The position numbers were made by a program, and so were the translations under genes. 61,350 nucleotides of DNA from SAR86 cluster bacterium. GTDB lineage: Bacteria; Pseudomonadota; Gammaproteobacteria; Magnimaribacterales; TMED112. The DNA is taken from positions 1-61,350 of the forward strand of contig SHBL01000001.1 of NCBI GenBank assembly GCA_004321845.1, in the 5' to 3' direction. Below the pieces are notes generated by a model. The model saw only the letters and a list, made by a program, of their open reading frames with translations, ran no database searches and had not been told where the DNA came from. Shown here piece after piece: positions 15,672 through 25,307 of this stretch. Every line of letters begins with the position of its first letter. Positions within the stretch are counted from its first letter, which is position 1.

Positions 15672-17063
15672 TTAACCTAAATAATTAATAATTTCTTTAG
15701 CAGCATCACGACCATGGGCTATTGCATGCACTGCCAAGCTTGATCCAATTATCATATCTCCACCTGCAAAAAATTTTGGGTTAGACGTTTGGTATTTATA
15801 AACATTACTCTTTAAAGAAACTAAACCTTGATCGGATATATCAATATTATTTTGTATTACAAAGTCTTGTGGGTCTGCTTGGTATCCAAATGCTATAACT
15901 AACTTGTCCATTTCAATTAGCTTTTCTGACCCTTTCATTAATATTGGCTTTCTTCTGCCTGATTTATCTGGCTCACCTAATTCAGTTGAACCAACTTTTA
16001 TTTTACGAATTTTTCCATTACCAATAATTTCTAGCGGTTGGGAGTTGAACATGAAATTTACTCCTTCTTCTATAGCATGGTTAATTTCTTTTATAGATCC
16101 TGGCATATTGTCTTTATCTCTTCTGTAAACACAGGTAACACTTTCAGCTTGCTGTCTAATAGCGGTTCTAACACAATCCATCGCAGTATCACCGCCACCA
16201 AGCACTACTACTTTTTGATCTTTAAAATTTAGACTTTCTGCATCTTCTTCTGACATTAAATATTCTGTATTTTTTATTAAATACGGTAAGGCTTCAATAA
16301 CTCCCTCTTTACCCTCTCCTGAAAGATTTCCTTTGATTGCTTCATAAGTGCCTAGACCTAAAAAAACTGCATCACTTTTCTTTTCAATTTCTTTCATCTT
16401 TGATTGGTCTACTTCGAAGTTTAAGATAAATTTAACTCCTAAATCCTCAAGAATTTTTCGACGTTTTAACACAATATTTTTTTCTAATTTAAATTCCGGA
16501 ATACCGTATGTTAAAAGTCCACCAATTTCTCTATACCTATCATAAACAGTACACTTAACACCTCTTCTAATAAGGTTTTCTGCACAAGCAAGGCCAGCAG
16601 GACCTGCTCCAATAATAGAAACTTTTTTATTAGTAAAATTATCTACATATTTTTTTGGTTGCCAGCCTTCTGCTAATGCTTTATCGGTAATATATTTTTC
16701 TATTTGACCAATAGTAACTGCTTCATAACCTGTATTGAGTGTGCATGCACCTTCACAAAGCTTTTCTTGTGGACAAATTCTGCCACATATTTCAGGAAAA
16801 GAATTAGTTTCATGACACAAATCTGCTGCTTCTTCTATCGATCCTTCCTGCGCTAATTTTAACCAATCAGGGATGTAGTTATGTAAAGGACATTTCCATT
16901 CACAATATGGATTTCCACAGTCCAGGCATCTACTAGATTGTTCTTTTACAGATTCCTGGGTTGTTGGCTCATATATTTCTCCAAAATCAATTTTTCTTGC
17001 TTTTACAGGCTTGGTATCAGGTTCAATCCTTTTAATATCTATAAACTCGAAATTTATTGACAT
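15672..17063 (-). CDS. gltD: glutamate synthase small subunit
   Basis: 463 aa. Cys clusters (CLDCGNPYCEWKCP) and an FAD/NAD GxGxxG motif (IIGAGPAGLA). Confidence 0.9.
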   Translation of the reverse strand: MSINFEFIDIKRIEPDTKPVKARKIDFGEIYEPTTQESVKEQSSRCLDCGNPYCEWKCPLHNYIPDWLKLAQEGSIEEAADLCHETNSFPEICGRICPQEKLCEGACTLNTGYEAVTIGQIEKYITDKALAEGWQPKKYVDNFTNKKVSIIGAGPAGLACAENLIRRGVKCTVYDRYREIGGLLTYGIPEFKLEKNIVLKRRKILEDLGVKFILNFEVDQSKMKEIEKKSDAVFLGLGTYEAIKGNLSGEGKEGVIEALPYLIKNTEYLMSEEDAESLNFKDQKVVVLGGGDTAMDCVRTAIRQQAESVTCVYRRDKDNMPGSIKEINHAIEEGVNFMFNSQPLEIIGNGKIRKIKVGSTELGEPDKSGRRKPILMKGSEKLIEMDKLVIAFGYQADPQDFVIQNNIDISDQGLVSLKSNVYKYQTSNPKFFAGGDMIIGSSLAVHAIAHGRDAAKEIINYLG

Positions 17064-20000
17064 TAAGCAGCATCCTCACGTGTTTTTTGGATAATTCTGC
17101 TAAGATTTTCTGCGAAAGGAGTAACTATCCAAAAGAGACTTTGAAATTTTTCAAAATCAGCTAAAATTTCTCCAGCTACTTCACTTTTTGTTTCTTTAAT
17201 AAATAAATGAATTCTGTCTTTAAGATAGGATCTATGTGCTTCCATTTCTTGGGAAGTAATTCTGTTAAAGGCAACAAGATCTTTATTGCATTTATCAACA
17301 AAACTTCTGTCTTGATCAAAAACATAGGCAAAACCACCTGTCATGCCAGCCCCAAAATTATTTCCAACTGGACCTAAAACAATAACTTCACCACCTGTCA
17401 TATATTCACAACAATGGTCTCCGCTACCTTCAATAATTGCTTTTGCACCAGAATTTCTAACGGCAAATCTTTCTCCAACTGTACCATTAACATATAATTC
17501 TCCACCGGTAGCACCAAATAAGCATGTATTACCAGCTAAAACAGATCTTTCTTCTTGTAAGTATTTATTTTTTTTAATTACAATCTTGCCCCCATTCATT
17601 CCTTTGCCAACATAGTCATTAGCTAGGCCCTCAAGTCTTAAATCTAAACCATTGGAGTTCCAGCAACCAAAGCTTTGACCTGCAGCACCTTTAAAATTTA
17701 AAGTTAGTTTTTCTGGAAATCCAGTACGACCGTACTTTTCAGCAATATCTCCTGATAACCTTGCACCAATTGATCTATGAGTATTCTTAATTTCAAAATT
17801 GAAGGAACCTGCTTTGCCATTGAAAATGTTTGTCTTAAGTTTTTTGTTTATGAGGTTTGTAAGCGATTCATCATTTAAAGAAATATTAATTTTATTTTTT
17901 GAAATAAGATTTGTCTGACTCTTATTTGGTCTATATCTCTCTTTTAGTGCTTCTAATCCCAATTTGATTGATTGGTCTCTGGTCTCTTCTTTAAATTCTA
18001 ATAAGGATGACTGCCCAATAACTTCCTCTAAGGTTCTAAATCCTAATAAAGCAAGGTTTTCCCTAACTTCACAAGCAGTGAATTCAAAGAATTTTTGAAC
18101 TTTTTCAACTTCACCAAGAAAATGTTCATCAATAATTCTTAGTTGTTGAGTAGCAACGCCAGTAGCACAATTATTTAAATGACATATTCTTAAATATTTA
18201 CAACCCATAGCTATCATTGGAGCTGTGCCAAAACCAAATGAATCTGCTCCAAATACTGCTGCTTTAAGTACGTCTTCAGCAGTCTTCAAACCGCCGTCTG
18301 TTTGTAGCCTCACATTAGTACGCAAATTGCTTTGTAACAAAGTATTTTGAGTTTCATGCATTCCTGTTTCCCAAGGAGAACCTGCGTGCCTTATAGATGA
18401 TATTGGACTGGCACCAGTTCCACCATCATGACCAGAAATAGTAATGAAATCTGCATTAGCTTTAACCACACCAGCTGCAACAATCCCTACTCCTGGTTCT
18501 GAAACAAGCTTTACTGATACTAAAGCATCTGGATTGACTTGCTTAAGGTCATAAATAAGCTGAGCAAGGTCTTCAATTGAGTAGATATCATGATGTGGAG
18601 GAGGTGAAATTAAAGTAATTCCTGGTTTTGAATATCGTAATTTGGCTATGTATGAGTCTACTTTGGAGCCTGGCAATTGCCCGCCCTCTCCTGGTTTAGC
18701 ACCTTGTGCAATTTTGATCTGAAGAACTTCTGCATTTCTAAGATAGTGAGGCGTTACACCGAATCTTCCAGATGCAACTTGCTTAATTTTTGACTCCATA
18801 TTAGTGCCATATCTCTTTGGATCTTCTCCTCCTTCTCCAGAATTGGATCTACAACCTAAACCATTCATTGCAGCCGCTAAAGTTTCGTGAGCAACTGGTG
18901 ACATCGAACCTAAACTCATACCAGCTGAATCAAATCTAGATAAAATATCTTCAATAGGTTCAACTTCTTCAATATCTAAAGGCTTTCTATTTGAATTTAA
19001 TTTAAAGAAGTCTCTTATTGCCAAAGGTTTTCTATTGTTAATATGTGATGAAAAATCTTTAAAGCCTATATATGAACCGACTTTCAGTGAATTTTGCAAG
19101 TTCATGACAACATCAGGATTATATGCATGATCTTCCCCATCATGTTTAAATTTATGTAAGCCTTTTGCTACTAAACTATTATCAACTCCTGAATGAATTA
19201 TCAGCATAATATTCTGATGTAAATCTTCAAAACAGTCGCCTTTAATTAAAGAGTAATTTGCAGGGAAACATATCTCATTAACTTGATCAGAGAAACCTAT
19301 AACTTCAAATAACCCAGATCCTCTATAACTTGAAACATTAGAAATGCCCATTTTTGACATTATTTTTAGCAGCCCTTTGTTTAAAGATTTTCTATATGAT
19401 GCACAAAGCTCATTGGACGTCAGCTCGGTTTGAATTTTATTAGATAATTTAAGAATAGTTTGCAACCCTAACCAGGGATGTACACATGTAGCGCCAAAAG
19501 CAATAAGACATGCAACTTGATGATTATCTCTTGCTGATGCGGTATTTACAATAATATTACATTTAGTTCTTAAATCATCTGCAATTAACTGGCTATGCAC
19601 TGCAGATGTAATTAATAAAGCGGGAATAACTGGGATCTTGGGGCTTGATTGTTTTTCATCGATAACTATGAGATTTGTGCCTAATTTTACAGCTTTCACA
19701 ATATCACTTATAACTCTATATATAGCAGTTTTCAGACCTTCTTCTTCAGAATATTCAAGTGAGAATCTCTTAACAGGAAACTTTTTATTTTTGAGCAATA
19801 AGTTAAATTTTTTATGCGAAAGAATTGGTGAATTAACTACTATCCTATTAGCATGCTCTTTAGTCTCTTCAAAAATGTTTAATTCAGGTCCGATGCAAGT
19901 TTCTAGAGACATTACTGACTTTTCTCTAAGTGAGTCAATAGGTGGGTTAGTTACTTGTGCAAATTTCTGTCTACAATTGTCATAGATAGACCTAATTTTT

Positions 20001-21478
20001 CTGCTTACTGGCGCTATAGGTGTATCATCTCCCATAGAACCAGTAGGCTCATTGCCCTCTAGTGCATAAGCTTTCAACATTTCAATCTCATCTGTTCCAA
20101 GCAAAAAATATTTAGCGGATTGATCAAAGTATTTTTTTGAAATTTCTTCTATTTTTGGGCCAGAATATTCATGTAGATTGGCTTCTAAATGCTTAGAATT
20201 TTCCTTTAACCAAGCTCTATAAGGTTTTGATTTTGATAATTTTCTATCAACTTCATCATTCATCATGAGTTGAGATAAATTTCTGTCAAATACAATTAAA
20301 CCGCCGGGTCCTAACCTATCTGTAGCTATCCTTCTTATATTTTTTTGCTCATTTGACCCTACTTCAGAGGACACGCAAACCGTGTCATCGTTAAAATACT
20401 CAATTCTTGCTGGTCTCAAGCCATTTCTATCTAAGAAACAAGAAACAAAATCTTTATTTTGAAAACAAATTAGAGCAGGGCCATCCCATGCTTCCATGTG
20501 CATTGAATTATATTCATGAAATGCTTTTTCATCTGGGTCCATTAAATCTGTGTTTTGCCAAGAAGGAGGAATAAGCATTCGTGCTGCTCTTCCAATATCT
20601 ATGCCACCCAAAGTAAATAACTCTAAAATATTGTCTAAAGATGAAGAATCAGACCCATTCTGATTGATTAAGGGAAAACAATCTTTAAGATCTCCAAAAA
20701 CTTTCGATTCAAAATTTTTAAATCTAGCTGTTGCCCAGTTACGATTACCAGATATAGTATTTATTTCGCCATTATGAGCTAAAACCCTATAGGGCTGGGC
20801 TAAGTGCCACTTGGGTGAGGTATTGGTAGAGAATCTTATATGAAAAGTAGCAGAAGCAACCGAGTGAGATAAATCTTCGAGGTCAGGATAAAATTTTGAG
20901 AAATAATCTGGAAGCACTAACCCTTTATAGATAATTGAATTAGATGAAAGACTGACACAATATAATTCCTTTTCAGGATTAAAATTATTATCAAAATACT
21001 TCTTAATTTTAAAAAAAGTTGGTTCCAAGTCTGGTTCAAAATTATTGGATTTTGGTGCAAAAAAGATTTGCATAATCTTTGGGCATGATTTTAATGCAAG
21101 CTCTCCTAAGATATCTTTATTAACTTTAAGTTCTCTTTGGGCAAGAATTTTTATATCAAAATCAGCACAAATTTTTACAATAATATCTTGGTAATCAAAA
21201 TTATTTTTTATAAAAAAAACGCCTACAGAAAAAAAGTTAGGTAGTATTAAGTTCTGTTCTTCAAGAAGCTTTTTTCGAAAATAATTTCGATCTAAATCGA
21301 TAAGAATTCCACAACCATCAGGCGTTATTCCATCATAACTTACAGCACCTCTATGCTTCATGTTGCATAAAGATATAAGTGCTCTAGAAATTATCGAGTG
21401 GCTAGAAGTATTATTCTTATTGAATATAACTCCAGTACCACAAGAATCATGATCTTGTAAAATAGGATTACCTTTCAT
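17063..21478 (-). CDS. gltB: glutamate synthase large subunit
   Basis: 1471 aa. N-terminal amidotransferase Cys (DSCGTGVI), FMN and GXGXG domains. Its stop overlaps the gltD start. Confidence 0.95.
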   Translation of the reverse strand: MKGNPILQDHDSCGTGVIFNKNNTSSHSIISRALISLCNMKHRGAVSYDGITPDGCGILIDLDRNYFRKKLLEEQNLILPNFFSVGVFFIKNNFDYQDIIVKICADFDIKILAQRELKVNKDILGELALKSCPKIMQIFFAPKSNNFEPDLEPTFFKIKKYFDNNFNPEKELYCVSLSSNSIIYKGLVLPDYFSKFYPDLEDLSHSVASATFHIRFSTNTSPKWHLAQPYRVLAHNGEINTISGNRNWATARFKNFESKVFGDLKDCFPLINQNGSDSSSLDNILELFTLGGIDIGRAARMLIPPSWQNTDLMDPDEKAFHEYNSMHMEAWDGPALICFQNKDFVSCFLDRNGLRPARIEYFNDDTVCVSSEVGSNEQKNIRRIATDRLGPGGLIVFDRNLSQLMMNDEVDRKLSKSKPYRAWLKENSKHLEANLHEYSGPKIEEISKKYFDQSAKYFLLGTDEIEMLKAYALEGNEPTGSMGDDTPIAPVSRKIRSIYDNCRQKFAQVTNPPIDSLREKSVMSLETCIGPELNIFEETKEHANRIVVNSPILSHKKFNLLLKNKKFPVKRFSLEYSEEEGLKTAIYRVISDIVKAVKLGTNLIVIDEKQSSPKIPVIPALLITSAVHSQLIADDLRTKCNIIVNTASARDNHQVACLIAFGATCVHPWLGLQTILKLSNKIQTELTSNELCASYRKSLNKGLLKIMSKMGISNVSSYRGSGLFEVIGFSDQVNEICFPANYSLIKGDCFEDLHQNIMLIIHSGVDNSLVAKGLHKFKHDGEDHAYNPDVVMNLQNSLKVGSYIGFKDFSSHINNRKPLAIRDFFKLNSNRKPLDIEEVEPIEDILSRFDSAGMSLGSMSPVAHETLAAAMNGLGCRSNSGEGGEDPKRYGTNMESKIKQVASGRFGVTPHYLRNAEVLQIKIAQGAKPGEGGQLPGSKVDSYIAKLRYSKPGITLISPPPHHDIYSIEDLAQLIYDLKQVNPDALVSVKLVSEPGVGIVAAGVVKANADFITISGHDGGTGASPISSIRHAGSPWETGMHETQNTLLQSNLRTNVRLQTDGGLKTAEDVLKAAVFGADSFGFGTAPMIAMGCKYLRICHLNNCATGVATQQLRIIDEHFLGEVEKVQKFFEFTACEVRENLALLGFRTLEEVIGQSSLLEFKEETRDQSIKLGLEALKERYRPNKSQTNLISKNKINISLNDESLTNLINKKLKTNIFNGKAGSFNFEIKNTHRSIGARLSGDIAEKYGRTGFPEKLTLNFKGAAGQSFGCWNSNGLDLRLEGLANDYVGKGMNGGKIVIKKNKYLQEERSVLAGNTCLFGATGGELYVNGTVGERFAVRNSGAKAIIEGSGDHCCEYMTGGEVIVLGPVGNNFGAGMTGGFAYVFDQDRSFVDKCNKDLVAFNRITSQEMEAHRSYLKDRIHLFIKETKSEVAGEILADFEKFQSLFWIVTPFAENLSRIIQKTREDAA

Positions 21479-21570
21479 AACATTAATTAAATGTTTTTCA
21501 TTTTTCTTTGTTGACTTTTTGATTATATAGTATTAATTTGGATAATGTTAACTCATAAATTGTGTTTATA

Positions 21571-21647
21571 ACCCATACTCCATGGGATAAAAGGAGCCCA
21601 TATAACATGGGTTAAAAGTTAGACCATCTCCATGGTAAAAAAGGAGC
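21571..21647 (+). repeat. two copies of a ~27-nt unit at 50-nt spacing, forming small CCAU/AUGG hairpins
   Basis: acccatactccatgggataaaaggagc (21571-21597) versus agaccatctccatggtaaaaaaggagc (21621-21647). Three 5-bp hairpins: 21572-76/21582-86, 21597-601/21607-11 and 21623-27/21632-36. Confidence 0.6.
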
Positions 21648-21700
21648 GAATCGTTCATCCAACTTGGGACGGAAGTAAGCAAACTGCTGAAGGAACGCGC
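21646..21700 (+). promoter_or_regulatory. glutamine riboswitch (glnA RNA motif) aptamer
   Basis: GCGAAUCGUUCAUCCAACUUGGGACGGAAGUAAGCAAACUGCUGAAGGAACGCGC. It carries the hallmark strings CGUUCA.CC, GGACGGAAGUA and GAAGGAACGC, with P1 pairing CGUUC/GAACG. It lies in the 5' leader of an ammonium-uptake operon. Confidence 0.78.
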
Positions 21701-21766
21701 TTAATTTTCTATGTATAAGGTTTGATCCTTTTTTTTATTACGCATTTTTTTAAAAAGGAGATGTTT

Positions 21767-22363
21767 ATGAAAAAGGGAATGATGACATTAGTCATGTTTC
21801 TTACGTTTACGGTATTTGCAGATTTATCTGCAAACTTTACTTATTCGACTAACTATATTTGGCGAGGGATGACCCAGACAATGGATGATCCTGGCTATAG
21901 TGGTGGATTTGATTATGCAGATGAATCCGGTTTTTATGCTGGAACTTGGGGCTCTAATGTGGCATTTGGTGGTGCAGGTCTTGAGCTTGATACGTATGCT
22001 GGATATTCCAGTTCTACTGATGGTGGATTTGATTACGACGTTGGTTACATCAGCTACGCATATCCTAGTGCTGGAGGAGATTTTGAAGAATTCTATTTTT
22101 CTGGATCATATGAAGGTATAGGATTTTCATACTACTCGCCTACAGCAGGTGATGCAGACTATATGGAAGTTTCTTATTCTGATGATTATGTAGGTGTCTC
22201 ATATGGTGATTACAACGGCTATGGCACAAACTTCCTAGTTTCCTATGCTTTTCCTCTATGGGGATATGATGCATCTGTTGGTTATAGTGAGTTTGAAGCT
22301 GAAACAGGTTCAGGCATGGAAGATGAAGACGGTCTTTTCTTCAGTCTTGGTGCGTCATTTTAA
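21767..22363 (+). CDS. TorF/Gcw_chp-family putative outer-membrane beta-barrel (porin-like)
   Basis: Signal peptide MKKGMMTLVMFLTFTVFA, then ANFTYSTNYIWRGMTQT...GFYAGTWGSNV and a Gly/Tyr/Ser/Asp-rich barrel-like composition. AAGGAG lies 6 nt upstream of the ATG at 21767. Confidence 0.7.
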   Translation: MKKGMMTLVMFLTFTVFADLSANFTYSTNYIWRGMTQTMDDPGYSGGFDYADESGFYAGTWGSNVAFGGAGLELDTYAGYSSSTDGGFDYDVGYISYAYPSAGGDFEEFYFSGSYEGIGFSYYSPTAGDADYMEVSYSDDYVGVSYGDYNGYGTNFLVSYAFPLWGYDASVGYSEFEAETGSGMEDEDGLFFSLGASF

Positions 22364-22391: not shown

Positions 22392-23672
22392 ATGGATGAA
22401 TTAGCGTTTGGTTTAAATACCTTTTACTTCGTTATGATGGGTGCACTTGTTATGTGGATGGCAGCAGGATTTACTATGCTCGAAGCAGGACTTGTCAGAA
22501 AGAAGAACACTGCGGAAATAGTTACCAAAAATATCGGATTATATTCAATTGCTTCTGTGATGTTTATGGTTTGTGGTTACTCAGCATTATATGCCTCTGG
22601 AGGAAATGGTGTATTGCCAGAATTTACCTTTGATTTTATGCACACAGAACCTGGATCTACTGAGGTAGAGTATGTAGATGGTGCAGTATATGCGGCGGGA
22701 GCATCTGACTTCTTCTTTCAAGTTGTATTTGTAGCTACAGCCGTATCGATCATATCTGGTGCAGTTGCAGAACGAATGAATCAATGGCCATTTTTTGCTT
22801 TAGCAGCTTTTGTGGCTGGATTCGTTTATCCAGTTCAGGGATACTGGAATTGGGGCGGAGGATTCCTCAAAACTGCGGTTGAAGACGGAGGATATGGCTA
22901 CATTGACTTTGCCGGCTCAGGTACTGTTCACCTACTTGGTGCAGCTTGTGCCCTTGCAGCAGCAATTTTCATTGGGCCTCGAATGGGCAAATACGGAAAA
23001 GTGACTGGTAAAATTGCTGGGATTTTTCCTAAAGCAAAAACAAATAAGCTTTATGGTGCGAATATGCCAATAGCAGCCCTGGGTACTTTTATTTTATGGC
23101 TAGGTTGGTTTGGATTTAATGGTGGATCTTGGTTGTCTGCACATACAGCAGAAGCTGCGCATGGATTCTCACATGTTGTCATGAATACAAATGCAGCAGC
23201 CGCAGGTGGGGTTGTAGCCTGTCTTATAGTAGCTAGAGTCTTTTTCAAGAAAACTAACTTAATTTACGCATTAAATGGTGCTATTGGTGGTTTAGTGGCT
23301 ATTACAGCAGGACCAGATACACCAACAGTGTTTGAAGCAACAATGATTGGTGCAACAGGAGGTTTGCTTTGTTATGGCTCTTTAGTTGCATTTGAACAAT
23401 TCTTTAAAGTCGATGATCCAGTTGGAGCTATATCTGCACATGGTACTGCAGGCTTATTTGGTGTAATGGTAGTTCCATTAACAAATGATGCTGCAACCTT
23501 TACAGGACAAGCTGCAGGAGTAGTATCAATAGCCGTCTGGGGATTTGTTCTTACTTACGTATTTTTATTCTTACTTAATTTCTTAGCTCCAGTAACAGCT
23601 TCAGAAGCTATTCAGAAGAAGGGATTAGATGCTGAGGAAATAGGAATAGAAGCTTATCCGGAATTTAATTAA
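22392..23672 (+). CDS. amt: ammonium transporter (Amt family)
   Basis: 426 aa, polytopic. Contains AGFTMLEAGLVRKKN and DFAGSGTVHLLG Amt signatures. Confidence 0.93.
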   Translation: MDELAFGLNTFYFVMMGALVMWMAAGFTMLEAGLVRKKNTAEIVTKNIGLYSIASVMFMVCGYSALYASGGNGVLPEFTFDFMHTEPGSTEVEYVDGAVYAAGASDFFFQVVFVATAVSIISGAVAERMNQWPFFALAAFVAGFVYPVQGYWNWGGGFLKTAVEDGGYGYIDFAGSGTVHLLGAACALAAAIFIGPRMGKYGKVTGKIAGIFPKAKTNKLYGANMPIAALGTFILWLGWFGFNGGSWLSAHTAEAAHGFSHVVMNTNAAAAGGVVACLIVARVFFKKTNLIYALNGAIGGLVAITAGPDTPTVFEATMIGATGGLLCYGSLVAFEQFFKVDDPVGAISAHGTAGLFGVMVVPLTNDAATFTGQAAGVVSIAVWGFVLTYVFLFLLNFLAPVTASEAIQKKGLDAEEIGIEAYPEFN

Positions 23673-23769
23673 GTATGAGCGAGAAAAGATCTGTTATTAC
23701 TCTCATTGTTTACCCCCTAATGTAATAGTTTTTTCTCGCTTTAACTTAGTTAAATAAAAAAAATTTATT

Positions 23770-23807
23770 AAGATGGTTTTATGAAATATAAAACCATCTT
23801 TTTTTTA
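23770..23807 (+). terminator. rho-independent terminator-like hairpin downstream of amt, enclosing the amidase start codon
   Basis: aagatggtttta / taaaaccatctt 12-bp stem with an 8-nt loop, followed by a T8 run. The ATG at 23781 spans the 3' end of the 5' stem arm and the first loop base. Confidence 0.5.
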
Positions 23808-25307
23808 TTTTTATCCACTTTTCTGATTGGTTCAGAGTCAATTCAATATCTATCAATTTCAGAGTTTCAAAAATCAATAGAGAATAGTGAGAATAAAAAA
23901 GTTTTCCTTAAATTTTATATAGAAAAAATTAACGAGTTAGACAAAGAAACAAACTCAATAATTTCTCTTTATAGTGCTGACAAACTTTATAAGTCTTATG
24001 TTTATGGTAAGAATAAGGATTGGCAAGGTATCCCAATACTTCTCAAAGACAATATTGATACAAAGGGTTTAGCAAATACTGCAGGATCAATTTCTTTGAT
24101 TGATAACTTCCCACGCAATGATGCTCAATTAGTTAGAAATTTAAAAAAATCTGGTTTCCTTATCCTAGGAAAAGCTAATTTATCAGAATGGGCAAATTTT
24201 AGAGGCGAGAACTCTGTAAGTGGATGGTCAAGTTATGGCGGGCAAACAAGAAATCCATACAACCTTGAGCTTAGTCCTTGTGGTTCAAGCTCAGGCAGTG
24301 CAGTAGCAGTTGCTCTAGGATTGGTGCCTGTATCAATAGGTACTGAAACTAATGGCTCAATAACCTGTCCTGCTTCAATTAATGGTGTTGTGGGTATAAA
24401 ACCTACCGTTGGACTAGTTAGTAGATATGGAATAATACCTATTTCCTCTACCCAAGATACTGCTGGACCGCTAGCTAAAAGTGTATTAGATGCAGCAATA
24501 GTTCTTCAAGCAATTGCAGGAAAAGACCCTAAAGATAAATATACGCATTCAATACCAAGCGATTATAATTTTGATGCTCTTACAAGATTAGATAAAAATT
24601 ATTTGAATAATAAAAGAATAGGTTTAATTACGCCAAATCAAAATGCACCAGATGAAGCATTTAGATTGATTGAAAAAGTTAAGCAACAACTAAAATTACT
24701 TGGAGCTGAAGTAATTGAAGTAAGTTTTGCTCCAGTGCCTCAAAACTTTTGGTCCTCTGCTTTATTCGTCCTTCAACATGAGTTTTACATAGGGCTTAAT
24801 AGTTACCTAAAAAAATCTAAATCAAAAATGCAGGACATGGAATCAGTTATAAATTTCAATAAATCAAATTCTGAGCAAGTTATGAGCTTCTATGGGCAAG
24901 AATATTTTATTAAAAGTGTTGATTCTGCTCCAGGAAAAACTATTGGAGACATTAGAACTGAAATTATATATCAAGAGTCTTTAGAAACTCTTGACTACGC
25001 TAAAAGAGCTATTGATAGTGCATTGGTTAATAATAAATTGGATGCTCTCGTAGGTCTAACCAGAAATACTGCTTGGAAAATTAATTATGAAACTGGAGAT
25101 GCTTTTGAGAACAGCTGGGGCAATGGAGCCTTATCAGCAATATCAGGCTACCCTCATATTACAATCCCTTTAGATTTTTCAGATAACCTCCCAACTGGAG
25201 TATCTTTTATGGGTGCAGCATGGGATGAGGTTAAACTACTTAATTTGGCTTATTCATTCGAGCAATATAACAACTTTTTACCTAGACCAATTCAAGACAA
25301 GAATTGA
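23781..25307 (+). CDS. secreted amidase (amidase-signature family)
   Basis: 508 aa. Signal-peptide-like N-terminus; AS-family Gly/Ser-rich motif GSSSGSAVAVA and a catalytic-type TQDTAGP region. Confidence 0.8.
   Translation: MKYKTIFFLFLSTFLIGSESIQYLSISEFQKSIENSENKKVFLKFYIEKINELDKETNSIISLYSADKLYKSYVYGKNKDWQGIPILLKDNIDTKGLANTAGSISLIDNFPRNDAQLVRNLKKSGFLILGKANLSEWANFRGENSVSGWSSYGGQTRNPYNLELSPCGSSSGSAVAVALGLVPVSIGTETNGSITCPASINGVVGIKPTVGLVSRYGIIPISSTQDTAGPLAKSVLDAAIVLQAIAGKDPKDKYTHSIPSDYNFDALTRLDKNYLNNKRIGLITPNQNAPDEAFRLIEKVKQQLKLLGAEVIEVSFAPVPQNFWSSALFVLQHEFYIGLNSYLKKSKSKMQDMESVINFNKSNSEQVMSFYGQEYFIKSVDSAPGKTIGDIRTEIIYQESLETLDYAKRAIDSALVNNKLDALVGLTRNTAWKINYETGDAFENSWGNGALSAISGYPHITIPLDFSDNLPTGVSFMGAAWDEVKLLNLAYSFEQYNNFLPRPIQDKN

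Follow-up and report, generated by a model that had tools for sequence, protein, structure and literature searches.

Cyanobacteria are the only organisms in which glutamine riboswitches have been proven functional; the gene they turn on there encodes an inhibitor of glutamine synthetase (GS) (PMC6212724). The leader of Synechocystis gifB is built on a three-helix junction, and its 3' flank pairs with the ribosome-binding site (RBS) (Ames and Breaker, 2011, and Ren et al., 2015, via PMC6212724). Structural and genetic work has established that, once the ligand binds, a C located 3' of P1 is recruited into a long-range G-C pair and a short helix adjoining P1 is melted (PMC6212724). A link between the glnA motif and amt genes was reported as early as 2010 (Weinberg et al., 2010; PMC2864571), and the glnA-motif RNAs of marine metagenomes lie before amt, glnA, gltB, and PII genes, often in tandem (PMC2864571; PMC9481103). 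In 2018, Klahn et al. obtained no matches to the Rfam family RF01739 outside cyanobacteria in RefSeq 80, described the riboswitch as confined to cyanobacteria and unassigned marine metagenome sequences, and stated that, for the metagenomic members, neither the hosts nor the way in which glutamine affects glnA and similar genes was known (PMC6212724). The glutamine-II riboswitch (Downstream-peptide motif, RF01704) has a related core and the same ligand as type 1.

In enteric bacteria, NtrBC/sigma-54 together with GlnK (PII)-AmtB ties the output of the ammonium transporter to the glutamine pool; this system is protein-based and acts on both transcription and transporter activity. "Candidatus Pelagibacter ubique" is a streamlined marine heterotroph without PII and NtrBC, and its post-transcriptional nitrogen control was proposed to be glutamine-responsive (Smith et al., 2013; PMC3870248). 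The structured leaders of its amt genes were presented as novel, with no ligand assigned (PMC3870248), and the restriction of RF01739 to cyanobacteria in RefSeq 80 argues that they are not members of that family.

The locus described here lies in a window (the whole stretch of DNA analysed) of 61,350 nucleotides. It shares with gifB the three-helix junction, the cores AUCGUUCA, CGGAAGUA, and GAAGGAACGC with the "linchpin" C, the presumed ligand, and a position 5' of a nitrogen-metabolism gene. It differs from gifB in its heterotrophic SAR86 host, in its target, which is a porin-ammonium transporter (Amt) operon and not a GS-inactivating factor, in a 3' flank that does not pair with the RBS, and in its aptamer, which is placed on the operon's strand 66 nt 5' of the porin start codon, enclosed by a candidate long-range helix and preceded by a conserved module of 74 nt; under the model preferred below, the sign of regulation is probably opposite too. 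The aptamer almost certainly belongs to the marine-metagenome population, given its marine source, the nitrogen-assimilation genes downstream, and the same aptamer, and it is set apart from those members by its assigned lineage (SAR86), a single copy as against tandem copies, and lineage-specific flanking elements. It has a real P3 stem where RF01704 has a pseudoknot, and membership of RF01704 was rejected at 10.5 bits against a gathering threshold (GA) of 33 (E 7.5). Like the enteric system, it would tie ammonium-transporter output to the glutamine pool, with the mRNA itself as the sensor, and its host, like "Ca. Pelagibacter ubique", is a streamlined marine heterotroph with a structured amt leader.

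The original prediction had named a glnA-motif riboswitch from the letters at 21652-21697, which were read exactly, and the Rfam search bears it out. With cmscan, RF01739 matched 21650-21701 (+) at 58.2 bits against a GA of 35 (E 2.9e-10), untruncated over model positions 1-53 of 53, and it was the sole gathering-level match across the 61-kb window among all 4227 Rfam families. A covariance model of our own, trained on 15 other proteobacterial aptamers, scored 61.2 bits at the same site and returned nothing else in the whole window at E<=10; likewise, no second or degenerate aptamer was detected with Rfam at E<=10 in 21300-21900. The window leader is thus a single-copy type and not tandem, whereas sister SAR86 leaders carry two to three aptamers. 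In the Rfam model alignment all invariant core bases are matched, namely AUCGUUCA, (A)CGGAAGUA, and GAAGGAACG in blocks at 21650-57, 21669-77, and 21689-97, together with the linchpin, C21698. The predicted GCG/CGC extension of the closing helix is also present (21646-48 with 21698-700), with an AAU bulge between it and P1.

Comparison with relatives points in the same direction. Across 129 distinct proteobacterial aptamers, 98.8% of cells are paired, and both-sided changes occur in all four P2 pairs and all three P3 pairs, while P1 is invariant because the search pattern held it fixed. The covariation score of this set, 0.51, was reached by none of 500 shuffles, which score 0.20, and compares with at most 0.09 in slid controls; the counts of pairs and changes are biased upward, since the alignment was fitted to the model. 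Compensatory changes in P3 are also found within the 21 orthologous leaders. By sequence and pairing, the aptamer is a type-1 glutamine riboswitch (glnA RNA motif) and a normal member of the known class, and with a probability of roughly 0.8 it acts as a functional riboswitch in the porin-Amt leader, in cis on its own mRNA.

The control region is common to gltB, and two other readings were weighed: a decayed or accidental match that has no function today, and an element serving the divergent gltBD genes. Either is extremely improbable: the match has an E-value of 2.9e-10 and lacks no core base, 21 orthologous leaders whose coding sequences share 65-90% identity all keep the aptamer, with compensatory P2/P3 changes, and the aptamer stands on the plus strand beyond the gltB leader, which the promoter scan places at ~37 nt and which is aptamer-free. 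On conservation, the decayed-copy reading is effectively refuted.

The nearest relatives of the window are a Gammaproteobacteria MAG at 86% nucleotide identity and the SAR86 SAG AG-349-I13 at 75.5%; the closest relatives carry SAR86 labels, and on sequence relatedness the host is a SAR86-clade marine gammaproteobacterium, from a lineage that has received little study, in line with the gammaproteobacterial assignment first proposed. The gene context, in Pfam and NCBIfam domains, is as predicted, with the aptamer ahead of the porin-Amt genes, divergent from gltBD, in a 288-bp control region between the gltB ATG at 21478 (-) and the porin ATG at 21767 (+) (Table 1). The porin and amt genes are 28 nt apart, and the Amt score on TIGR03644 is slightly under the cutoff of 514 bits. 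A three-gene operon including the amidase had been claimed; the gene order holds, and cotranscription of the amidase is uncertain in view of the 108-nt gap after amt and its 10-bp inverted repeat (23678-87/23731-40). The Shine-Dalgarno (SD) sequence is spaced 6 nt from the porin ATG. TTG 21722, given by the open reading frame lister as the porin start, was rejected in favor of this SD-preceded ATG.

Table 1. Positions of genes, signals, and RNA elements around the glutamine aptamer, numbered along the window.
Feature	Position	Strand	Basis or description
gltD, glutamate synthase, divergent	15672-17063	-	Pfam domains
gltB, glutamate synthase, divergent	17063-21478	-	Pfam domains
Candidate sigma-70 promoter of riboswitch operon, TTGACT-17-TAATTT	21512-17, 21535-40	+	By eye; putative
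gltB promoter, TTAACA-18-TATAAT, 11/12 matches	21522-21551	-	Promoter scan; conserved in relatives
Highly conserved 5' module (74-nt)	21572-21648	+	Identity over 21 orthologous leaders
Hairpin H1, CCCAU-ACUCC-AUGGG	21572-86	+	In 5' module
First SD-like sequence, AAGGAG	21591-96	+	In 5' module
Hairpin H2	21597-611, extendable to 21595-613	+	In 5' module
Candidate long-range helix, 5' strand GUUAGACC	21618-21625	+	RNAalifold consensus; in 5' module
Hairpin H3, ACCAU-CUCC-AUGGU	21623-36	+	In 5' module
Second SD-like sequence, AAAAAAGGAG	21637-46	+	In 5' module
P0 helix beside P1, GAGCG with CGCUU	21644-21648 with 21698-21702	+	MFE folds
Glutamine-I riboswitch aptamer (RF01739)	21650-21701	+	Rfam, own covariance model, P2/P3 covariation
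P1	21652-56 with 21693-97	+	
P2	21658-60 with 21667-69	+	
P3	21678-80 with 21686-88	+	
Conserved linchpin C, 3' of P1	21698	+	
CUAUG block	21709-21713	+	Complementary to CAUGG 21631-35 in 3' strand of H3
Candidate long-range helix, 3' strand GGUUUGAU	21719-21726	+	RNAalifold consensus
UCC-U8 tract, candidate anti-SD	21726-21736	+	Complementary to AAAAAGGA of true SD and to SD-like 21637-46
SD AAGGAG and porin start ATG	21755-60, 21767-69	+	Sequence; conserved in leader alignment
Porin gene, TorF/Gcw_chp-family putative outer-membrane protein, 198 aa, signal peptide	21767-22363	+	PF09694 9e-21; TIGR02001 82.9 bits vs cutoff 47
Ammonium transporter, marine subtype, own SD	22392-23672	+	PF00909 2.9e-80; TIGR03644 490 bits
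Amidase-signature enzyme	23781-25307	+	PF01425 5.5e-86

The candidate plus-strand promoter is kept in the relatives L006, L100, and L113, overlaps the gltB promoter on the opposite strand, and predicts a leader of ~220 nt with a transcription start near 21547. The promoter scan lists instead a weaker plus-strand site, TTGATT-16-GATAAT at 21519-46. A sigma-54/NtrC site of the TGGCAC-N5-TTGC type is absent from 21441-21948 with up to three mismatches allowed; two perfect sigma-54-type matches occur elsewhere in the window, both within open reading frames. The half-site TGCACCA of the GS-II leaders was discarded as an NtrC site by eye, its spacing being wrong.

Upstream of the aptamer, the 5' module stands out for its conservation: over the 21 orthologous leaders, mean pairwise identity reaches 95.7% there, 82.6% in the aptamer, and 74.3% in the coding sequence. 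It has no Rfam match at E<=10. Among the SAR86-type loci fetched, it occurs solely 5' of glutamine aptamers, in the leaders of three gene types (porin-amt, GS-II, and TonB receptor), with a fixed geometry in which a 6-nt A-rich linker is found in 24 of 24 unique units. Between paralogous units, the closing pair differs in a compensatory manner (C:G vs A:U), as does the second hairpin (CCC/GGG vs CUC/GAG).

These features raise the question of whether the module is the main determinant, as a second sensor or a protein or ribosome platform with the aptamer as one input to a composite SAR86-specific leader. This is judged unlikely: besides the conservation, the occurrence 5' of aptamers, and the paralogous hairpin changes, which speak for it, the module shows no covariation within orthologues, H3 is broken without compensation in 2 of the 21 leaders, and the ATP-grasp, small-ORF, and three-aptamer porin leaders of SAR86 lack it altogether; alternatively, the module may work as a DNA operator. 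Pairing of the CUCC loop with the downstream GGAG as an H-type pseudoknot was rejected as sterically implausible in our assessment, loop 1 being just 0-1 nt over a 4-bp stem, and the sole variation at this candidate pairing is a G-U-compatible GGGG in L061 and L080. Short reading frames that might encode leader peptides (AUG-GGU-UAA, behind the first SD-like sequence, and AUG-UAU-AAG-GUU-UGA, at 21711) were set aside, as orthologues do not conserve them. A promoter role for the module (-35 TTAAAA, -10 TAnnAn in GS-II leaders) was likewise dropped: the porin leaders do not fit it, and it leaves the compensatory hairpin changes unexplained.

A broader version, slightly less doubtful, takes the aptamer as one part of a composite SAR86-specific nitrogen-control leader, in which the module and the long-range helix would form an undescribed platform or a second sensing or binding domain; on this view, the module comprises three CCAU/AUGG hairpins, two CUCC loops, and two SD-like AAGGAG sites. 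Such a second domain could bind a protein, the 30S subunit, or another metabolite, and might invert or gate the output of the aptamer.

The candidate long-range helix of 8 bp encloses H3 and the aptamer; its 5' strand overlaps the first 3 nt of H3, and its 3' end adjoins the CCU-U8 tract, which is complementary to the RBS. Its eight pairs are retained throughout the 21 leaders, with two one-sided compatible changes and no compensatory ones, the 3' strand having been fixed by the metagenome search pattern used to collect the leaders (AGGTTTGA held fixed). Its ensemble probability is 0.91, and we estimate that about two 8-bp matches with G-U allowed would arise by chance between regions of this size. 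A related GUUUrAC block is also kept 3' of the aptamers in other SAR86 leaders. In P0, the 5' strand overlaps the second SD-like sequence and the 3' strand starts at the linchpin C. It is paired in 85.7% of cells over the 21 leaders; as a universal feature it was rejected, since it holds in the window's subclade, and in the sister subclade it is out of register or weak. The CUAUG block is kept in 18 of the 21 leaders, and the remaining three have CCAU, which is able to pair with AUGG. The CCUUU core of the UCC-U8 tract is present in all 21 leaders, and L027 and L053, SAR86 porin leaders with three aptamers, have a comparable UCCUUU-N3-4-AAAGGAG hairpin beside the SD. The anti-SD pairing is of low complexity (A-run versus U-run), with just 4-5 bp in one subclade.

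In the preferred model, the aptamer would read the intracellular glutamine pool as a measure of nitrogen status. Binding of glutamine would weaken the closing helices, namely the long-range helix and P0, the latter holding the C that the ligand-bound aptamer recruits. The 5' strand of the long-range helix would then refold into its own local hairpin, and the freed 3' strand with the UCC-U8 tract would pair with the RBS AAAAAGGAG (21752-60); with the RBS sequestered in this way, translation of the nitrogen-scavenging operon would drop at high glutamine. That glutamine turns the operon off is rated at even odds on this modelling, and that the regulated step is translation rather than termination is held a little more tentatively.

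The same parts may be assembled into a switch of the opposite sign, a possible though less favored reading. Here, glutamine would pull C21698 from the P1-attached helix and free the SD-like AAAAAAGGAG, which would pair with the UCC-U8 tract (9 bp) and unmask the true RBS. The linchpin and helix-melting steps are those established for the gifB ON switch (PMC6212724), and the flank CAUCUUU of the SAR86 small-ORF leaders pairs directly with AGGAGAUG in the same ON design. In the window, the SD-like sequence matches the UCC-U8 tract as well as the true SD does, and L100 and L128 share a matching U/A change, seen by eye, in this putative pairing. Some glnA-motif genes were inferred to be down-regulated on nitrogen depletion (Weinberg et al., 2010; PMC2864571), and one SAR11 Amt paralogue, SAR11_1310, is made solely in nitrogen-replete cells (PMC3870248), so repression by glutamine cannot be assumed for every amt gene. 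Against this, it would be physiologically odd for a porin and transporter that scavenge ammonium to be under positive feedback, P0 does not overlap the SD-like GGAG in one subclade, the long-range pairing (~85 nt) would compete with a local one (~20 nt), and the folding models contain no such switch.

The folding models themselves are to be read with care. Partition functions were computed for three states, namely with the aptamer imposed and its linchpin C left unpaired, with the aptamer free, and with P1 disallowed, and these folds gave no consistent change in SD/AUG accessibility for the window leader and 20 orthologues. The test was equally blind on the leaders expected to be ON, the cyanobacterial and small-ORF controls, which showed no effect either, and its failure there makes it uninformative about SD masking rather than negative. 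In seven leaders of one subclade, forcing the bound aptamer lowered the long-range helix probability in four and moved the SD-like GGAG onto the CUCC loop.

The terminator scan called no canonical intrinsic terminator, taken as a G+C-rich hairpin of 5 bp or more with a U-tract directly behind it, on the plus strand in 21702-21766, where AAGG/CCUU provides a local stem of just 4 bp; the earlier description of this stem plus a U-run (21718-21736) as no convincing terminator therefore stands. The UCC-U8 tract could still supply the U-run for a terminator that is weak or atypical. Action on transcription would mean that the long-range helix, or the AAGG/CCUU hairpin, forms with CC-U8 (21727-36) an aptamer-dependent atypical terminator, or that the AU-rich spacer serves as a ligand-gated entry site for RNase E or Rho. 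An A-tract, the 8-bp helix, and a run of eight U are set terminator-like around the aptamer domain, a U-run of 7-9 nt is kept in the window's own subclade, and the spacer, rich in U, is predicted to have little structure. These arrangements are outweighed by the empty scan at CC-U8 with its short local stem, by a long-range stem with three G-C pairs (in the window, two G-C and one G-U) closing a loop of ~95 nt, and by the sister subclade, in which the U-run is broken (CCCUUUAGAUUC, CCCCCUUUUCAUUC) and the remainder is conserved. Transcriptional control is unlikely, and translational repression by glutamine is kept as the working model.

Candidate outer helices around glutamine aptamers are not limited to SAR86. 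In all the alphaproteobacterial tandem riboswitches analysed, an analogous outer helix of -10 to -12.5 kcal/mol joins the linker, which begins with the linchpin C of aptamer 1, to the 3' tail. By analogy, outer helices that involve the flank of the linchpin C could be a general and hitherto undescribed mode of glutamine-riboswitch action in marine heterotrophs controlling amt, glnA, and gltBD.

The glnA motif was found in 119 genome loci, of which 86 are labelled proteobacterial, from marine Alpha- or Gammaproteobacteria. The view of the motif as mainly cyanobacterial or marine metagenomic is thereby qualified, in that a non-cyanobacterial host is in itself not rare. In marine Proteobacteria, the genes behind the motif include amt, glnA, GS-II, gltB, gltD, and small DUF4278 genes. 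The original prediction also suggested that RNA-level sensing may replace PII control of Amt. This idea is weakly addressed: no PII homologue is encoded within the 61-kb window and no glnK adjoins amt, and riboswitch and PII coexist elsewhere, as a PII gene lies directly 5' of riboswitch-glnA in at least 13 alphaproteobacterial loci.

The window and the 119 loci assign many orphan motif sequences to abundant ocean heterotrophs, namely SAR86, SAR116, and Pelagibacteraceae-related or -labelled lineages, in which the aptamer fronts core genes of ammonium assimilation (amt, GS, and GOGAT). The comparative data add two new features, the 5' module and the conserved candidate long-range helix, and the leader offers a concrete construct of ~250 nt with specific mutable helices. 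If glutamine represses Amt here, the leader would correspond, in a streamlined genome and with RNA alone, to the NtrC and PII circuit, providing negative feedback equivalent to the NtrC/GlnK control of enteric amtB, and it would bear on how dominant bacterioplankton respond to nitrogen limitation.

The sequence at 21652-21697 (CGUUCAUCCAACUUGGGACGGAAGUAAGCAAACUGCUGAAGGAACG) reads exactly as originally predicted, and both that observation and its main interpretation hold up, the aptamer being a genuine representative of an already known class of riboswitch. The proposed Rfam comparison gave RF01739, 'Glutamine riboswitch aptamer (glnA leader)', which spans model positions 1-53 of 53 at 58.2 bits (gathering score 35; E 2.9e-10), and this was the sole gathering-level match on both strands of the whole window among 4227 Rfam families. 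A permissive Rfam scan of 21300-21900 (E<=10) added only noise and a sub-threshold echo of the related Glutamine-II family (10.5 bits vs 33), so the leader has one aptamer and no tandem. A covariance model (R1), built from 15 other proteobacterial aptamers (alignment A2), scored the aptamer at 61.2 bits and found no further one in the window.

The search with R1 recovered 165 aptamers from 97 non-cyanobacterial sources. Among their 129 distinct sequences, standard pairs occupy 98.8% of cells and all pairs of P2 (4/4) and P3 (3/3) show changes on both sides, counts that are somewhat inflated since the alignment was fitted to the model; P1 is invariant, having been fixed by the search pattern. 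The covariation score was 0.51 vs 0.20 after shuffling (0/500 shuffles reached 0.51) and at most 0.09 with partners slid. From metagenomes, 24 further copies of the window-type leader were gathered, and 21 distinct ones were aligned (A1); across these orthologues, all from the same operon, P3 has compensatory changes, P2 varies in length and sequence, and the core is invariant. The probability that the element is a functional cis-acting glutamine riboswitch of the porin-amt operon is put at about 0.9.

The host was earlier claimed to be gammaproteobacterial, which agrees with its nearest relatives: the gltBD-leader-porin region shares 86% identity with an uncultured Gammaproteobacteria MAG contig (L002), 75.5% with the SAR86 single-cell genome AG-349-I13 (L113), and 69% with SAR86 MED-G79 (L100). 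By these identities the genome belongs to the SAR86 clade; the G+C of the window is 34.6%.

The predicted porin-Amt-amidase operon stands in part, as porin and amt are very likely co-transcribed, and co-transcription of the amidase is uncertain in view of its longer gap and an inverted repeat that could be a terminator or attenuator cutting it off the riboswitch transcript. The amt product scores 490 bits with its nearest NCBI model, slightly below the 514 cutoff. Divergent gltB and gltD lie upstream, as had been described, and the gltB promoter leaves a leader of ~37 nt with no aptamer; the candidate plus-strand promoter would give a leader of ~220 nt. Both promoters use the same ~40 bp (21512-21551) on opposite strands, a layout kept in the related loci L006, L100, and L113, and RNA polymerase bound at one promoter may thus keep the other from being occupied. 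The control region has no sigma-54-type site, and the 61-kb window has no PII homologue.

Features of the riboswitch leader, its operon, and related loci (L-numbers)
Feature	Position	Strand	Remarks
Riboswitch-operon promoter (candidate)	TTGACT 21512-17, TAATTT 21535-40	+	17-nt spacing; kept in relatives
gltB promoter TTAACA-18-TATAAT	21551-21522	-	near-consensus
5' module	21572-21648	+	six parts
Module part 1			hairpin CCCAU-ACUCC-AUGGG
Module part 2			SD-like AAAAGGAG
Module part 3			hairpin CCCAU-AUAAC-AUGGG
Module part 4	21618-25		GUUAGACC, 5' strand of candidate long-range helix
Module part 5			hairpin ACCAU-CUCC-AUGGU
Module part 6			second SD-like AAAAAAGGAG
GAGCG	21644-48		inside second SD-like sequence
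Aptamer, RF01739 match	21650-21701	+	
Linchpin C	21698		begins CGCUU
CUAUG	21709-13		conserved
GGUUUGAU	21719-26		3' strand of candidate long-range helix
UCC-U8	21726-36		candidate anti-SD
Porin SD AAGGAG	21755-60	+	
TorF/Gcw_chp putative-porin family protein	ATG 21767	+	198 aa, signal peptide; PF09694, TIGR02001
Ammonium transporter	28-nt gap after porin	+	nearest model 'marine subtype' TIGR03644
Inverted repeat, amt-amidase gap	23678-23740	+	10 bp, AGCGAGAAAA with UUUUCUCGCU, 43-nt loop
Amidase-signature enzyme	108-nt gap after amt	+	
Full leader before another gene	L125:1987-2210	+	first gene ATGGAAGAATTAGC...
DUF4278 ORF, SAR86 genome	downstream of L086:4363-4476	-	MTSYYRGIKV...
DUF4278 ORF, Porticoccaceae MAG	downstream of L051:7394-7505	+	MATYYRGFKV...

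Across the 21 orthologues, the 74-nt 5' module in front of the aptamer is best conserved, with a mean pairwise identity of 95.7% (minimum 90.5%), followed by the aptamer (82.6%), the CDS over its first 450 nt (74.3%), and the spacer 3' of the aptamer (65.9%). The module, which has no Rfam match, includes three CCAU/AUGG hairpins, of which two carry CUCC loops, as well as a pair of SD-like AAGGAG sites. A lone unit of the module type stands before the aptamer in SAR86 GS-II and TonB-receptor leaders (L061, L064, L071, L080, L023), and in all loci fetched such units were seen only 5' of glutamine aptamers. On the metagenomic contig L125, the full module, the aptamer, and the GGUUUGA leader stand before a first gene other than the porin, and from this arrangement the leader apparently moves as a whole.

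RNAalifold and single-sequence ensembles suggest a candidate long-range helix around the third hairpin and the aptamer, with an ensemble probability of 0.91 without constraints, falling to 0.81 when the aptamer is enforced. All 8/8 pairs are kept in 21/21 sequences, although the 3' strand was fixed by the metagenome search pattern and a chance match of such size is not improbable; the changes are one-sided and compatible only, with 0 compensatory. The helix and the third hairpin are mutually exclusive because the helix overlaps the hairpin's 5' strand, and the hairpin's 3' strand is a possible partner for the conserved CUAUG. Directly after the helix lies a conserved CC(U)n tract; in the window it is as complementary to the second SD-like sequence as to the true SD region AAAAAGGAG, which makes it a putative anti-SD. 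As earlier claimed, the terminator scan detected no canonical terminator between aptamer and SD; an atypical one is allowed, in which the helix is followed by CC-U8.

According to published work cited in PMC6212724, the bound ligand draws the C that follows P1 into a G-C pair over a long range, and a short P1-attached helix melts; in gifB, the RBS is thereby freed. In the window, CGCUU pairs with GAGCG, a register not kept in the sister subclade. Bound glutamine would, in the proposed model, loosen the closing helices, the 5' strand would return to its local hairpin, and the freed 3' strand with the CCU-rich tract would mask the RBS, so that high glutamine would lower translation of a nitrogen-scavenging operon. 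The odds that glutamine turns the operon OFF are judged about even. Such a sign would agree with how amt is controlled physiologically and with the linchpin mechanism; that translation is the step regulated is proposed more tentatively. The opposite sign, ON with glutamine, is rather unlikely, and would work if the freed SD-like sequence could titrate the CCU tract. Constrained partition functions did not tell the OFF, ON, and terminator models apart, and failed too on leaders expected to be ON.

Analogous to the candidate helix of the window, the outer helix of alphaproteobacterial tandem riboswitches encloses aptamer 2. Their linker CAUGC-N1-3-GUUAU starts with the linchpin C belonging to aptamer 1. 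Its duplex with the 3' tail AUAGCU-N2-3-GCAUG has an energy of -10 to -12.5 kcal/mol in all the tandems of this class that were examined (e.g., L026:6004-6190, L025, L005, L003), with some compatible variants (GGUUA with UAACU or UAGCU). In SAR86 and other gammaproteobacterial leaders (L016, L098, L099, L030, L119, L022, L008, L109), the flank CAUCUUU after the last aptamer is directly complementary to the SD/start region AGGAGAUG, the same design as in the ON switch of Synechocystis gifB. For the small basic ORFs that follow these leaders (46-61 aa, several with FFPYYL at the end), Pfam gave no match. The gltB/gltD leaders of other Gammaproteobacteria (L017, L111, L019, L029) carry a single aptamer right behind a clear sigma-70 promoter, followed by the mutually complementary CACCAAAC, GUUUGGUG, and AUCAUCAAAC, with the linchpin C at the start of CACCAAAC; by their complementarity, these could form alternative, attenuator-like hairpins. 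Two small ORFs directly behind tandem aptamers match DUF4278 (Pfam E 6e-7 and 1e-4). This domain is that of IF17, a factor by which cyanobacteria inactivate glutamine synthetase and which has so far been regarded as confined to them.

A strict core pattern scanned in one genome per GTDB species yielded at least 119 loci, sorted by record title into Cyanobacteria (at least 31), Alphaproteobacteria (at least 52; SAR116, Pelagibacteraceae, and many GORG single cells), SAR86 (at least 17), other Gammaproteobacteria (at least 13), other Proteobacteria (at least 4), and unlabelled records (at least 2). Among the proteobacterial matches listed, the genes directly 3' are amt, glnA, a GS-II-like gene, gltB, gltD, TonB-dependent receptor, circularly permuted ATP-grasp, and TorF-type porin genes, and small ORFs including those of DUF4278 proteins. 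Circularly permuted ATP-grasp type 2 (PF14403, 468-481 aa) is a recurrent target in two proteobacterial classes (L005, L009, L018, L020, L033, and L055 in Alphaproteobacteria; L066, L105, and L117 in SAR86), which hints at a role of these proteins in nitrogen or glutamine-linked metabolism. At many alphaproteobacterial loci (L007, L025, L041, L054, L065, L083, L085, L087, L096, L104, L110, and others), the tandem-riboswitch-glnA unit directly follows a PII (glnB-like) gene, so that those genomes have PII as well as the glutamine riboswitch.

The motif was described from 'cyanobacteria, marine' with amt, PII, GS, and GOGAT as associated genes (Weinberg 2010, PMC2864571), and RefSeq matches were later placed exclusively in cyanobacteria, the glutamine effect and taxonomic affiliation of metagenomic glnA-upstream copies being stated as not known (Klahn 2018, PMC6212724). 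Further reports list 157 doublets and 4 triplets (Sherlock 2022, PMC9481103), occurrence of the motif in myophages of OM43 and SAR11 (a 2022 paper), and, in passing, RF01739 within SAR86 deletions (a 2025 long-read metagenome paper). From this literature, the aptamer class and its amt link were already known, and its presence in SAR86 was noticed but unstudied; the lineage and gene context are barely touched, yet common in current genome collections. What raises the window leader above an ordinary member is its highly conserved 5' module and the recurrence of aptamer-enclosing helices in marine heterotrophs, and it makes the mode and direction in which glutamine switches control amt, glnA, and gltBD directly testable.
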